This document shows, in pieces, positions 52,591 to 59,653 of a DNA stretch of 64,000 nt. How positions within the stretch are numbered: the first letter of the stretch is position 1; each line of letters opens with the position of its first letter. The stretch spans positions 1,952,001 to 2,016,000 of the forward strand of contig CP122380.1 in NCBI GenBank assembly GCA_024650005.2, read 5' to 3'. The translations under genes and the position numbers were made by a program. Source of the DNA: Candidatus Bathyarchaeum tardum. GTDB lineage: Archaea > Thermoproteota > Bathyarchaeia > Bathyarchaeales > Bathyarchaeaceae. The notes beneath the pieces are model-generated. The model had not been told where the DNA came from and made no database searches. It worked only from the letters and a program-made list of their open reading frames with translations.

Positions 52591-52698
52591 GCCGGGGTAG
52601 CCTAGCCTGGCTATGGCGCCAGACTCATGATCTGGAGAGCAATCTCCTAAAAAATAGGTGCCCAGAAGTCGTGGGCTCGAATCCCACCCCCGGCACCA
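52591..52698 (+). tRNA. tRNA-Met(CAT), elongator type, with a 30-nt intron at 45/46 (52638-52667)
   Basis: GCCGGGG/CCCCGGC acceptor, CCAGA-CTCATGA-TCTGG anticodon arm; removing the intron restores the AGGTC variable loop; CCA encoded. Confidence 0.92.
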
Positions 52699-54025: not shown

Positions 54026-54592
54026 TCAGGAATTTGCTTTTTGTGCGACGTCTTTTGCCCAGTTGCGTATATTGTTGATATCTCTAGTGTCGTATAGTCC
54101 AGGTTCTGTTTGTGGGACTCCGGCTTCTTCTAGTTGGGGTTTAACGCCTGACAAGGTTTTTTTAAAAAACCATCCCATCCTGTTGAAGTTGTAAACTCCA
54201 CCAAATAGTCCCAAAGAGATTGGTTGCAGATTGTATTTGGCAGCTTTTTCTTCCAGATGATGCGTTCGGGCGTACTCTAGTTCTGTTTCTATGTTGGTCT
54301 TTTCGTCCAAAGGGTATTTGGCGCCGCAACAGATGAACAGCGCAGTTTTCTTGTTCGCTAATTCATTTTTAAACGTGTTAAGAAACTTTTCAGGTTCTTT
54401 GGTCCACTTTTTTATTTTAATTCCGCTACCGACTACAACAAGGTCGTAATCGTTTATGTCTTTGACTTTTCCGTTTTTGAGATTAACCACCGTGGTATCT
54501 AATCCTTCTTGACGAAAAACATCCGCAATTTCGTTCGAAGTCATTTCAGTTGCCCCATAACGGGTACCATAAACAATCAAGGCTTTACTCAT
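54026..54592 (-). CDS. Flavodoxin-domain protein (HemG-like)
   Basis: IVYGTRYGAT, YDLVVVGSGI, LFGG, DTRDINNIRNWA. Confidence 0.9.
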   Translation of the reverse strand: MSKALIVYGTRYGATEMTSNEIADVFRQEGLDTTVVNLKNGKVKDINDYDLVVVGSGIKIKKWTKEPEKFLNTFKNELANKKTALFICCGAKYPLDEKTNIETELEYARTHHLEEKAAKYNLQPISLGLFGGVYNFNRMGWFFKKTLSGVKPQLEEAGVPQTEPGLYDTRDINNIRNWAKDVAQKANS

Positions 54593-56006: not shown

Positions 56007-57995
56007 TTATGCAAATCCTAATAGTGCTCCTATTCCTGTGATGACCAAGCCAACAATGTATGCCACGACAAGAGTCAATAACACTTGGAAGATTGTCCAC
56101 TTCCATGAGCCGGACTCTTTTTTCATGGTGCCAATTGTTGCGACACATGGAATATACAGCAACGTGAAAGCCATCAGCGTGAAACCGATAACTGGATTGT
56201 AGTTTGCCACTAAAGCGCCTGCAATCGCTGTTTCACCTTCTACTATGTAGATTATTCCAAGGGCTTCCACTGCGATCTCTTTTGCCAGTAAACCGAAGAC
56301 CAGTGAAGATACGATTCGCCAGTCAAAGCCTAATGGTGCAAACAGTGGCGCAAGTGCTTGACCGATTTGTCCAGTGTAAGACATTTCTACTTCAGCACCC
56401 CACGGGAAGGTTGACAAGAACCATAATATGATAGCTCCCGCCAACAGGTATGTTCCAGCTTTCTTAAGGAATAGAACACCACGTTCCCACATGTGAGTCA
56501 CAATGGCACTAATAGTAGGCGCCTTGTATAGAGGCAATTCCATGATGAAAGGTGCAGGTTCACCTTTCAGCACAGTTTTCCGTAACAGAAGCGCTAAACC
56601 GATTGCTACTACAATGCCAAGGAAATACATGGACCAAACTGCTGCGGTTGCCATTGAACCAAAGAATGCTCCTGCGATTAGGATGTACACTGGAAGTCGT
56701 GCACCGCAAGAAATGAAAGGGTTAACTAGCAGGGTAATCAGTCGATCTTTTTTTCCTTCAATGCTTCGCGCTGCCATCATAGCAGGAATGTTACATCCAA
56801 AGCCGAGTAACATAGGAATAAACGAGCGCCCGTGCAATCCAAGTTTGAACATTATACGGTCCATTATGAATGCTGCTCGGGCAAGGTAGCCACTGTCTTC
56901 TAGAAACGATATTCCAAGGAACAGGAAAAATATCGGCGGTATGAAAGTCAGTATGAAGCCTAGTCCGCCGAAGATTCCGTCACCTACAAAGGACGCGAGA
57001 ATTTCATTGGGAATAACTGCTGATGCTTCGGCAAAGGATCCAAACAGCAAACCAATTATTTCCATAAAAGGAGCAGAAGCATCAAAGGCAAACTTGAACA
57101 TAGCCCAAAACAGGGTTATGAAAACAGGTATGCCCAAGTACTTATGAATGAAAACCTTGTCCAGCATGTCAGTTATGGTCCATTTTTTTGCGCCCTTAAC
57201 CAGACTTAACCCCAATGCTTCGCTGACAAGGTCATATCGTTTATCGGCAAGAACAATCTCAGGATCTTCTCCGATGGTTTTTTGTGCGTGGTTTATAGCA
57301 TCTTGAATTTCGTTTTGGATTTTAATGCCTTTGATTTTGTCAAGGGCATCTTTGTCGTTTTCGAGTAGCTTTATGGCAAGCCAGCGTTGGGGATACTTGT
57401 TTGTTAGCGCTGAATCTTTTGTGACAACCTGTGCAACAGAATTTATCTGGTTTTCAAGTTCTTTTCCATAGTTAATCTTAGGACTAGTTATCCATACCTG
57501 TTTTTTGGCAGCATAAACAATCTCGTCCTTGAGCTTGTCTAAACCTTCTTTAGCTGTGGCTACAGTTGGAACAACGGGCACACCAAGCTGTTTTGAAAGT
57601 TTTTTCACATCAATTGTGTAACCCTTCTCTTTGGCAACATCAAACATGTTCAATGCAACGACTACGTTTGCTTCTAGCTCTAACAGCAAGAACGTGAAAT
57701 ACAAGTTTCGTTCAATGTTTGAAGCGTCAATAATATGAACAACAACATCTGGTTTTTCTTCTACGATATAGTTGCGTGACACTAGCTCGTCTACTGCACG
57801 GGCAGTTAAACTGTATGTTCCAGGCAAGTCAACAATTTTGAGTTCAGTTCCTTTGTGAACACATTTGCCTTCTTTTTTTTCAACAGTTTTTCCAGGCCAG
57901 TTTCCAACATGTTGCCGAGCACCGGGCACAAGGCTGTTAAATATTACTGATTTTCCAACGTTGGGGTTTCCTATCAAAGCAACCGTGTGGGGCAT
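56007..57995 (-). CDS. feoB: Ferrous iron transporter B
   Basis: GNPNVGKS, VGNWPGKTVE, DLPG, NMFD, GFGCNIPA, FIMELP. Confidence 0.98.
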   Translation of the reverse strand: MPHTVALIGNPNVGKSVIFNSLVPGARQHVGNWPGKTVEKKEGKCVHKGTELKIVDLPGTYSLTARAVDELVSRNYIVEEKPDVVVHIIDASNIERNLYFTFLLLELEANVVVALNMFDVAKEKGYTIDVKKLSKQLGVPVVPTVATAKEGLDKLKDEIVYAAKKQVWITSPKINYGKELENQINSVAQVVTKDSALTNKYPQRWLAIKLLENDKDALDKIKGIKIQNEIQDAINHAQKTIGEDPEIVLADKRYDLVSEALGLSLVKGAKKWTITDMLDKVFIHKYLGIPVFITLFWAMFKFAFDASAPFMEIIGLLFGSFAEASAVIPNEILASFVGDGIFGGLGFILTFIPPIFFLFLGISFLEDSGYLARAAFIMDRIMFKLGLHGRSFIPMLLGFGCNIPAMMAARSIEGKKDRLITLLVNPFISCGARLPVYILIAGAFFGSMATAAVWSMYFLGIVVAIGLALLLRKTVLKGEPAPFIMELPLYKAPTISAIVTHMWERGVLFLKKAGTYLLAGAIILWFLSTFPWGAEVEMSYTGQIGQALAPLFAPLGFDWRIVSSLVFGLLAKEIAVEALGIIYIVEGETAIAGALVANYNPVIGFTLMAFTLLYIPCVATIGTMKKESGSWKWTIFQVLLTLVVAYIVGLVITGIGALLGFA

Positions 57996-58249
57996 CAGTT
58001 GTCAACCTCCTGAACCATTATTTTTGTAGCAACGCCCCTGCCAAAAGCTACACGAGAATCTTTTATTTCAACAACTAAAGGTCCACCGCGGTCGGGGTTA
58101 GGACAAGAATGGGAGCATATCACGGTTACTTCAGAGTCACGGGTAAGTCCCATGTCGTTTAATCGCCTAATCAGCTCTTTTCCGCCCCGAATTCGAGTTA
58201 TTTTTCCTTTAGCACCCACAGAAAGTAAAGCAAGAGGAACTTCCATCAT
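57995..58249 (-). CDS. feoA: FeoA family protein
   Basis: RRLNDMGL, GPLVVEIKDSRVAFGRG. Confidence 0.92.
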   Translation of the reverse strand: MMEVPLALLSVGAKGKITRIRGGKELIRRLNDMGLTRDSEVTVICSHSCPNPDRGGPLVVEIKDSRVAFGRGVATKIMVQEVDN

Positions 58250-58485
58250 TGTTTTTCCTCCAACGAGACGTAGATGCATTCTGCTTCTTTTTTGCGCAGG
58301 GTTAAATTATAGTCACGGATTTCGAATTCCACAGGATCACCTAGGGGCGCTCTGCGGATTACTTTGATTTTTGAGCCCCGAACGATACCCATGTCCATGA
58401 TTCGGCGCCTAATGGTGCCGCTTCCTTTGACGGTTACAACAATGGCTTTTTGTCCAGGTTCAAGTTTGTTTAATTGTAATTCCAT
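58246..58485 (-). CDS. feoA: FeoA family protein
   Basis: RRIMDMGI, APLGDP, LRKKEA. Confidence 0.95.
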   Translation of the reverse strand: MELQLNKLEPGQKAIVVTVKGSGTIRRRIMDMGIVRGSKIKVIRRAPLGDPVEFEIRDYNLTLRKKEAECIYVSLEEKQ

Positions 58486-58500
58486 TTAGCACACCTAATT

Positions 58501-58555
58501 TTAGGTCAATCTAATTTTTTGTTTTACTAAACTAAACACAGTTAGGTGAACCTAA
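58501..58555. promoter_or_regulatory. Two DtxR/MntR-type operators upstream of feoA
   Basis: TTAGGTCAATCTAA (58501-58514) and TTAGGTGAACCTAA (58542-58555). Confidence 0.8.
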
Positions 58556-58899
58556 ATCTTGCCCGAACAAAAATAGGAAAAAAACAAAAAAACCGAGAAA
58601 AATTAGGTTTGAATACATTAAACCTAAGAAACAAAAATTACATAAGCATTAAACTCAAATTATTGAAAAAATATTTCTCAAGCAATTTTTTAGCAACAAG
58701 CAATTAAGTTTGAATATGCGTGCATCAATGAGGTTACGGGATTCGTTCCCGTAGCGATACTAAAGGTACTCAAAGGTTTACCCAATAACCCCACCCCTGT
58801 TTCTGCCGCTGATACAATTACTTTAGCATTTCGTTCATGTATAACTTGCCGTAAAAAATTAAGAAACTAAGTCATAAACTAATAAACTATTTTGATTTA

Positions 58900-58985
58900 G
58901 TTGATGCGCAAATTGGGACCATAAGACTTTGGTTAAAGTGGAGGCACGAAAGGTTTTTCTTATGACCCCAATTTTAGGCGCAAAC
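58900..58985 (-). ncRNA. Candidate BHB/BHL-closed hairpin RNA (copy C, unrelated sequence)
   Basis: GUUU-GCGC-CUA-AAAUUGGGGUCAUAAGA...UCUUAUGGUCCCAAUUU-GCGC-AUC-AAC; tandem G-U pairs form only on the minus strand. Confidence 0.55.
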
Positions 58986-59022
58986 AATTATCATTTTAAT
59001 TAATTGGCAATTCGGTTTATGT

Positions 59023-59036
59023 ATAGATTACCCTAA
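59023..59036. promoter_or_regulatory. Degenerate DtxR-type box overlapping a minus-strand TATA-like element
   Basis: TTAGGGTAATCTAT on the minus strand, running into TATACATAAA. Confidence 0.45.
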
Positions 59037-59149
59037 AAAATTTAGAAAAATGAAATACAAACTAACAAACAATCAAAACATAGTCCTTGAAATCACATAA
59101 CAATCCACATAAAAGAGCAAAAACATCGTGCAACAGGTTCAAAATTATG

Positions 59150-59620
59150 CTACGAATTCTTGTTTTTGACGGTTTTTTGTTCACAGTATTTTTTGAATTC
59201 ATCCATCCATCGTTTCATGAACATTGGTCGCTCAGAATACTCAGTTATGAACTCAACAAACCGCGAAAACTGCTGTATCGTGTTAGAGGTTAATTCGTGT
59301 TCAAGGATGTGGGCATCTTTGAGTGCCACATCTTTTGGAACCAACAGGATTTCTAAAAAATTTTTAAAAGTTTCATGGCGGTTCTCGATTAGTTCAGCTA
59401 TTTGTGTTCCACGGTCAGTTAACGTGATTCCACCATATTTTTCGTAAACAACTAAACCTTTTGTGTCTAGTTTTTTCATCATTTCCACGGCAGTAGGAGG
59501 CTTAACATCGAGTTCGCGGGCAACATCTTTGATGCGAACAAAGCCTTTTTTGTTAACCACTTCGTAGATTGCTCGCAGATAATCTTCGACTTTACTGGAA
59601 ATTCCTGCATCACTAACCAT
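59150..59620 (-). CDS. DtxR/MntR-family metal-dependent repressor
   Basis: EDYLRAIY, VRIKDVA, YEKYGGITLT, RHE, DAHILEH. Confidence 0.95.
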   Translation of the reverse strand: MVSDAGISSKVEDYLRAIYEVVNKKGFVRIKDVARELDVKPPTAVEMMKKLDTKGLVVYEKYGGITLTDRGTQIAELIENRHETFKNFLEILLVPKDVALKDAHILEHELTSNTIQQFSRFVEFITEYSERPMFMKRWMDEFKKYCEQKTVKNKNS

Positions 59621-59653
59621 TAAGTTTACCCTAAAAAGATTAGGTTAACTTAA
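59620..59653. promoter_or_regulatory. Autoregulatory DtxR-type boxes
   Basis: TTAGGTTAACTTAA (59640-59653) and TTAAGTTTACCCTAA (59620-59634). Confidence 0.65.

Follow-up and report, generated by a model that had tools for sequence, protein, structure and literature searches.

The spacer between a dtxR gene and a feo operon of Candidatus Bathyarchaeum tardum carries a conserved structured RNA element on the minus strand, made up of two related neighbouring units. A hairpin noted there in a preliminary description of the 64,000-nt stretch that we analysed (the window) is the core of a larger unit, termed unit B (approximately 58891-59073), beside which lies the related unit A. The two units are probably functional structured RNA genes. 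Beyond this, we tentatively take them for a pair of small RNA genes that are specific to the lineage and repressed by a DtxR-family protein, a reading to which we give slightly less than even weight. The argument is built on structure, conservation, covariation, paralogy, a match to an operator box and the use of Shine-Dalgarno (SD) sequences. Overall, the genomic comparison presents the locus as a well-supported computational candidate of very narrow distribution, and as a plausible metal-responsive sRNA pair.

In the model that we favour, units A and B would be paralogous non-coding RNA genes on the minus strand, with A placed 180 nt downstream of B. Each 5' block would present a DtxR/TroR-type operator, CCTAA-N5-TTAGG-N4-YCTAT, resembling that of dtxR itself, and would be followed by an RNA of about 95-110 nt, predicted to form a long irregular hairpin with a pyrimidine-rich loop of 31-37 nt (the B loop contains CCUCC and CUUUA, that of A two CCUUU motifs). 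Under ample metal, the product of the neighbouring DtxR-family gene would occupy the box and keep the units off. When metal is scarce, the RNAs would be made, and their single-stranded loops would pair with purine-rich SD regions of mRNAs. Transcription, its start, metal control and the targets are predicted parts of this model.

The dtxR-feo locus and its host genome

We compared the genome holding the window (G000) with three congeners, G016, G004 and G017. G000 is a single 2.15-Mb contig with a GC content of 38.1%, and several of its traits look archaeal: the tRNA-Met contains an intron, the 3' end of the 16S reads ...GGATCACCTCCT, and CTTAAAT-like elements occur about 30 nt 5' of tRNA genes. 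On the minus strand of the window, ZnuA/ABC-3 transporter genes are followed by a methyltransferase gene, dtxR, a gap, two successive feoA genes and feoB; the transporter genes are thus close neighbours of the DtxR-family regulator gene. Pfam searches confirmed the identities of dtxR, both feoA genes and feoB. The gap, earlier put at about 665 nt, spans 58486-59149 and measures 664 nt. The genes that border it are as follows.

59150..59620, minus strand: DtxR-family regulator of 156 aa, without SH3/FeoA domain (Pfam Fe_dep_repress, 7.4e-20; Fe_dep_repr_C, 5.6e-11)
58246..58485, minus strand: first feoA (Pfam)
56007..58485, minus strand: feoA-feoA-feoB operon (Pfam)

A second feo locus lies outside the window (G000:C1:1261422-1264346) and consists of a gene for a 229-aa DtxR-like protein, feoA, and a feoB whose product is 39% identical to the first FeoB. 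The coding sequence of the DtxR-like regulator at this second locus contains a perfect TTAGGTCACCCTAA.

Two related hairpin units

Both units could be delimited within the gap.

58896..58988, minus strand: unit B RNA core: closing helix (5 bp in G000, 8 bp in G016), CUA bulge, 17-bp helix, apical loop of 31 nt (fold, G000/G016 alignment, covariance model)
58904..58975, minus strand: the stretch originally noted, GCGC...GCGC around the 17-bp helix (repeat search, fold, genome hairpin scan)
58712..58820, minus strand: unit A RNA core: 6-8-bp closing helix, 15-nt internal loop on the 5' side, 13-bp helix, loop of about 37 nt (alignment, folds, covariance model)

The original drawing of the unit B hairpin was confirmed. 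The arms of the 17-bp helix (58910-58926 and 58958-58974, 17 nt each) are 88% complementary on DNA, and the two non-complementary positions, A.C and C.A on the plus strand, become the described tandem G-U/U-G pairs on the minus strand. The minus-strand fold includes the UGCGC/GCGCA closing pairs and the CUA bulge on the 5' side, and the CCUCC reported for the apical loop was located there as GUGCCUCCAC. The 3' side of the closure can be drawn in two ways in G000, as the proposed 1x3 loop of U versus AUC or, in the minimum-energy fold, as a 2-nt UC bulge with a fifth, U-A pair.

The minus-strand fold of unit B has a minimum free energy of -29.7 kcal/mol (z = -4.72), and none of 200 shuffles folded as well. 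The plus strand folds about equally well (-30.7 kcal/mol, z = -3.61), and because energy fails to separate the strands, our strand call rests on the G-U pattern and on gene orientation. A scan of the 2.15-Mb genome for ungapped hairpins (arms of 17 nt or longer, no more than two mismatches) returned 22, nine of them intergenic, including the unit B hairpin. Other identities were considered and rejected: a 42-aa minus-strand ORF (58859-58987) is broken by indels in G016, plus-strand GGAGG-ATG mini-ORFs differ between G000 and G016, and an intrinsic terminator for dtxR was dropped on inspection by eye.

Unit A (approximately 58717-58884) is found directly downstream of unit B and has the same architecture and a similar 5' block. 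Aligning 58700-58900 with 58880-59085 gave 75% column identity, direct repeats D1-D4 recur in the two units about 182 nt apart, and the score of the local alignment between units A and B was reached by none of 500 shuffles. The opening blocks are likewise similar, TTTTTTAGGGTAATCTATACATAAAC in unit B and TTTTTTACGGCAAGTTATACATGAAC in unit A. The 13-bp helix of unit A is formed by GGGGUUAUUGGGU and AUCCCGUAACCUC, and its loop carries AACCUUU and CCUUUAGU, with two CCUUU motifs, kept in both species. Right after the unit A box, both species have a 6-codon ORF with a common TAA end (MNEMLK* and MNQTIK*; window 58818-58838, minus strand, and L023:6326-6346), and unit B has a 9-codon ORF in G016 and no ATG in G000. 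These short ORFs are probably meaningless.

Covariation and comparison with known RNA classes

The covariation data comprise four sequences from two species. The G000/G016 alignment of unit B comprises 25 pairs, and standard pairs fill 93.8% of the 48 pair cells. At three pairs both partners differ between the species, two of them in the closing helix (G-C replaced by A-U, U-A by C-G) and one in the long helix (C-G replaced by U-A). When the partner columns were slid as a control, pairing fell to 22-47%. For unit B alone, that is, for two sequences only, the shuffle control was weak, as 49 of 500 shuffles reached the covariation score. A 12-pair helix common to all four sequences is paired in 93.6% of 47 cells, five of its pairs are changed on both sides, and its covariation score was reached by 4 of 500 shuffles. 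The same helices were returned by RNAalifold with the alignment as sole input. G-U or U-G pairs occupy 6 of the 47 cells of the shared helix, and these would be A.C mismatches if read on the plus strand.

We then compared the units with established RNA classes, defined by C/D boxes, by an ACA box with a pseudouridylation pocket, or, for K-turns, by tandem G.A pairs after a 3-nt bulge. The sole match to a C/D-box, H/ACA or K-turn RNA was SNORD50, at 15.4 bits versus a threshold of 42 bits and outside unit B. By direct reading for a K-turn or an H/ACA RNA, the CUA bulge is followed by A-U pairs, and the two species have no ACA box in common. Across the window, Rfam at gathering thresholds matched two tRNAs and no family for the units, and an E-value scan of 58600-59150 yielded four sub-threshold chance matches.

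Operator-like boxes and candidate promoters

Each unit is preceded by a block that resembles the regulatory regions of dtxR and feoA.

59008..59046, minus strand: unit B 5' block, candidate operator/promoter, TCTAA-N5-TTAGGGTAATCTAT followed by ACAT (PWM, local alignment)
58835..58854, minus strand: unit A 5' block TTACGGCAAGTTATACATGA, with the box degenerate in G000 (PWM, direct repeats D1-D4 with unit B)
59621..59653, minus strand: operator pair of dtxR itself, TTAAGTTAACCTAA-N5-TTAGGGTAAACTTA, abutting the ATG, downstream of the TATA-like CTTTAAAT (kept in G016 and G017)
58501..58627, minus strand: feoA promoter, three TTAGG/CCTAA boxes (58603-58627; 58542-58555; 58501-58514) (kept in G000, G004, G017 and the G016 feoA contig)

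The DtxR-like box, described as lying about 40 nt upstream of the hairpin, was recovered as TTAGGGTAATCTAT at 59023-59036 on the minus strand, and 35 nt separate it from the closing helix downstream, which in the wider reading starts at 58987. Exact or near-exact copies of TTAGG-N4-CCTAA are found 5' of feoA and dtxR in the four genomes, and the unit boxes are one-sided variants of this motif, TTAGG-N4-YCTAT. The available text of PMC10783522 gives a ChIP-derived motif for Haloferax TroR, an iron regulator of the DtxR family in archaea; this motif, TTTAGGC-NNN-CCTAAA, has the same TTAGG-N4-CCTAA layout.

To quantify the match, we derived a position weight matrix (PWM) from 11 boxes in the promoters of feoA and dtxR across the four genomes and scanned both strands (about 4.3 million positions). 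The unit B box of G000 scored 14.5, a value reached at only 24 genome positions, several of which are training sites. The G016 boxes scored 16.2 (unit B) and 15.5 (unit A), as high as only 12 and 13 of the roughly 4.3 million positions, versus a mere 3.5 for the unit A box of G000. In local alignments of the 5' blocks with the dtxR operator (CCTAATCTTTTTAGGGTAAACT), the best four pairings were reached by 21, 10, 11 and 0 of 1000 shuffles, and four of the eight alignments had no significance. These comparisons support grouping the unit box with the operators of feoA and dtxR in one motif family. That the units are actually controlled through the box is, in our estimate, evenly balanced. A hint from MAFFT that the units might originate from the feoA promoter was discarded, the score being reached by 161 and 330 of 1000 local-alignment shuffles.

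The arrangement at dtxR, which is kept in G016 and G017, suggests that this gene is autoregulated and nearly leaderless, as it appears from the operator abutting its start codon. Searching for a wider regulon, we found that the other exact TTAGG-N4-CCTAA sites of the genome (38322, 1261803 and 1592947) all fall inside coding regions, so that the search revealed no such regulon.

Several elements could serve as the TATA box of the units. The first, TRTTAG, is positioned about 30 nt upstream of the box, is common to all four units and parallels the order of TATA element and operator in the dtxR promoter. The second, CTATACAT, just past the unit B box, weakly matches the CTTAAAT-type TATA before tRNA genes. 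The third is an AT-rich element nearer the hairpin, which would place the start inside the closing helix; we disfavour it because the compensatory changes in that helix suggest that its 5' strand is transcribed. In the 5' block of unit B (59008-59030, minus strand), GGU...ACC in G000 is replaced by GGC...GCC in G016, a compensatory-looking change that could mark a small 5'-leader hairpin or a symmetric operator.

Narrow distribution and the surrounding genes

BLASTN searches against 41 relatives detected the two units above noise only in G016, at 79% and 76%. The mean column identity of the units between G016 and G000 is 84%, with the similarity ending right past each structure, and the neighbouring dtxR and feoA genes share 81-86% DNA identity between these genomes. 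Covariance models built from the G000/G016 pairs scored 105.3 and 103.5 bits on the two unit B copies (model R1) and 125.3 and 128.7 bits on the two unit A copies (model R2). The R1 search located unit B in 2 of 25 genus genomes, and the R2 search, run on 141 genomes sampled from the order, located unit A in two and gave a further weak match in G071 (21 bits, E = 0.06). A dtxR orthologue is present in 4 of the 25 genus genomes. Each unit occurs once per genome.

Beyond these relatives, a pattern search of metagenomes (AAATTGGGG-N15-30-GCCTCCACTTTA) returned two loci, neither of which matched R1 or R2 at E up to 1, and we regard both as chance. A search of species genomes with the 5'-block pattern, leaving out records near the window, returned 17 loci, 16 bacterial and one from a Methanosarcinales MAG, which were also taken as chance.

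Conservation of the hairpin and of its bulge-helix-bulge-like (BHB) closure in the dtxR-feo spacers of relatives had been proposed as a check, and its outcome was mixed. The hairpin is kept in G016, is missing in G004 and G017, and shows a BHB-like 3' bulge in only one of the four family members. G004 and G017 have a plain dtxR-feoA spacer of about 155-165 nt, followed by feoA-feoA-feoB. G000, G004 and G016 are about equally related (81-90% DNA identity in dtxR and feoA genes), and G017 is more distant. In G016, the order is dtxR, unit B, a 2.7-kb feo cassette, unit A, and then at least 580 nt without an ORF; each unit retains its own 5' block despite the cassette between them. The G016 orthologue of feoA-feoA-feoB resides on another contig, behind a different gene, with its three boxes kept. 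Since G004, G017 and this separate contig keep the boxes without the units, we view the units as an accessory insertion linked to dtxR and outside the core feoA promoter. The cassette itself (L023:3712-6190, G016:C6) is a third feo system, situated exactly between the units and encoding a 200-aa Fe_dep_repr_C-FeoA fusion and a 629-aa FeoB; the latter is 31% identical to the main FeoB. The third system has no counterpart in G000.

This layout bears on a reading in cis, by which the units would belong, as structured segments, to the 3' UTR of dtxR or to a long leader of feoA and would act as a stabiliser, a processing site, an attenuator or a metal-sensing leader. Their strand and their position between dtxR and feoA would suit such a role, as would the 120 nt that separate unit B from the feo cassette downstream of it in G016. 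It fits poorly with the T5-T7 runs that lie between the dtxR stop codon and the box in both species, with the ORF-free stretch after unit A in G016, and with a three-box feoA promoter that stands without units in G004, G017 and the separate G016 contig. The 5' blocks kept by two units 2.7 kb apart, and the lack of a match to any riboswitch family, point the same way, and we consider a role in cis improbable.

We give similarly little credence to the proposal that the units act at the level of DNA or are relics, whether as extra operators with duplication palindromes or as junctions of a mobile feo cassette, and have no function as RNA. G-U pairs confined to one strand, together with the compensatory changes, point to selection on RNA, and the loop motif is invariant against varying stem bases. 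Moreover, the units are as conserved as coding sequence and, unlike a MITE, occur in one copy each per genome. These observations outweigh, in our view, what speaks for a relic, namely the patchy presence among equally related species, the placement of the units at either side of the cassette in G016 and the resemblance of the 5' block to a copied dtxR operator. An integron attC site was also considered and set aside, as its core motifs were absent by eye.

The loop motif and its predicted targets

A candidate region for pairing is found in the apical loop of unit B.

58934..58945, minus strand: invariant loop motif GCCUCCACUUUA, 12 nt, containing the anti-SD-like CCUCC, candidate seed (identical in G000 and G016)

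The mean predicted probability that this 12-mer is unpaired is 0.77 and 0.80. SD 5-mers peak at -16 to -8 before translation starts, with 153 and 240 per bin versus about 22 in background bins; SD sequences are thus used in this organism, which makes anti-SD pairing feasible. We computed duplex energies for 2248 translation-start regions, with gene calls and a duplex method that are both crude. The energies were distributed in an unremarkable way (mean -11.3, sd 3.8, minimum -25.6 kcal/mol). Allowing up to two mismatches, the complement of the 12-mer occurs at 113 sites, near-perfect complements are absent from translation starts, and among the local genes none stands out as a target in both G000 and G016.

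Two specific expectations about targets had been voiced. The flavodoxin site GGGAGGTACAAAAATG does precede a Flavodoxin_5 gene (54026-54592, minus strand), but it is no special target, ranking 236 of 2248 with -16.1 kcal/mol. Flavodoxin is normally induced, rather than repressed, under iron scarcity. The anticipated enrichment of iron proteins failed to appear, as no iron-protein domain could be recognised in any of the 15 best duplex targets; these include PheRS, a PAS kinase, Hsp20, ribosomal protein L21e, EPSP synthase, HisF and similar proteins. In our estimate, action by anti-SD pairing is on the unlikely side. As a separate observation, two unrelated genes (G000:C1, minus strand, 3281 and 1516814) have the common start sequence AAAATTGGAGGCTAAA(C)ATG, which is complementary to the unit B loop at 10 of 12 positions and resembles the unit B 5' arm AAAAUUGGGG.

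The units could instead be functional sRNAs that work otherwise, through protein binding or through mutual pairing of A and B. The scans of duplexes, of the 12-mer and of local genes yielded no specific mRNA target, as such a mode of action would lead one to expect, and in both species a G-rich internal loop of unit A is complementary to the loop of unit B, with CUCCAC/CCUCC in B facing GGGGUGGGG/GGGAGGGG on the 5' side of A. This pairing is deduced purely from short complementarity, and part of the G-run is used in a helix of unit A itself. We hold action of this kind, too, to be improbable.

The closing region as a proposed splicing substrate

The preliminary description had further proposed that the splicing endonuclease cuts the BHB-closed hairpin and that ligation yields a 72-nt circular sRNA. 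For G000 a fitting closure can be drawn: an outer helix of 3 bp, AUC bulged opposite a single U, GCGC as a 4-bp helix, the CUA bulge and the 17-bp helix. Its bulges are on the correct strands, and it agrees with the relaxed BHB as defined in the available text of PMC3978253. The strict motif (hBHBh') requires two 3-nt bulges on opposite strands and a central helix of exactly 4 bp between helices longer than 2 bp; against this definition the G000 copy is relaxed at best. The archaeal BHB substrates treated there (tRNA and rRNA introns, circular intermediates) share with the G000 copy an exact 3-nt bulge and a long inner helix, and their central 4-bp helix is one of two ways to read that of G000. 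The family here departs from them in its second bulge, which is imperfect in G000 and missing from G016, and in its paralogue, which has no such bulges. The central helix of G000 can be read as GCGC/GCGC, or as 5 bp with the U-A pair, which the minimum-energy fold with its 2-nt UC bulge favours, and the outer helix is only GUU/AAC.

The comparison across the family goes against the circle. In G016, GUGCGCAC and GUGCGUAC form 8 continuous bp, so that the 3' bulge is gone and with it the second cleavage site, and only the CUA bulge is common to both species. Unit A has, in both species, a one-sided 15-nt loop and no 3-nt bulges. The geometry is therefore present in one of four members, which amounts to no conserved processing signal, and the compensatory changes in the closing helix indicate that this helix is retained in the mature RNA. 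The spliced circle is thus unsupported by these sequences, and we consider it very improbable.

Relation to known regulatory RNAs

Metal-responsive sRNAs are central to bacterial iron economy. The units have on prediction two marks of this class, a conserved single-stranded seed and a metal-repressor operator (in three of four units, with PWM scores of 14.5-16.2). A close parallel is MrsI (ncRv11846), a mycobacterial iron-sparing sRNA that, according to the available text of PMC6016810, carries a site for the DtxR-family protein IdeR close to its start and its seed in an apical loop. The units resemble it in having a DtxR-family operator at the putative sRNA promoter, a conserved seed in the apical loop of a hairpin and a setting in iron homeostasis. 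They differ from MrsI in lacking sequence or Rfam similarity to it, in their archaeal host and in the length of the loop, 31 nt versus 7. They are, moreover, two tandem paralogues and come from two species only.

IsrR of staphylococci and FsrA of Bacillus are Fur-repressed sRNAs whose C-rich single-stranded regions bind SD sequences, as described in the text available from PMC9410917. Like them, the units have repressor boxes at the candidate promoter and pyrimidine-rich motifs predicted to be single-stranded, and they belong to an AT-rich genome, in which G-rich SD sites are distinctive as targets. In contrast to these RNAs, the repressor here would be a DtxR-family protein rather than Fur, a single long hairpin takes the place of three stem-loops and a terminator, homology is absent, and the predicted targets have no bias towards iron proteins.

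For the operator, Haloferax volcanii TroR offers a close likeness, with TTAGG-N4-CCTAA and tandem motifs in the promoters of iron-uptake genes and of a DtxR paralogue; here, however, the motif precedes non-coding units, and the available text of PMC10783522 mentions sRNA zero times. Our literature search found no archaeal sRNA linked to an operator of the DtxR family. Should expression and metal control be borne out, the locus would provide such a case. It would also illustrate how an sRNA gene may be born beside a regulator, through a copied operator module, tandem duplication and presence or absence among close species. In its most extended form, our proposal is that archaeal riboregulators arose here from a copied autoregulated dtxR promoter-operator, giving two paralogous sRNAs whose anti-SD-like loops would tune translation when iron or manganese is scarce. 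The locus would then be the archaeal equivalent of RyhB, IsrR and MrsI, observed shortly after it arose, given its presence in only 2 of the 25 genus genomes searched. We put this full scenario forward as rather doubtful.

Additional tRNA calls in the host genome

The window also contains a 105-nt intron-containing tRNA (52591-52695, plus strand; Rfam, 54.5 bits), which ARAGORN missed at default settings. With introns allowed, ARAGORN called tRNA-Leu, tRNA-Ser and tRNA-SeC genes of 314, 225 and 717 nt at G000:C1:82298-82611, 1299093-1299317 and 1690708-1691424, and a 'tRNA-Stop' at G000:C1 247946-248038. These long calls could represent very long introns or false calls.
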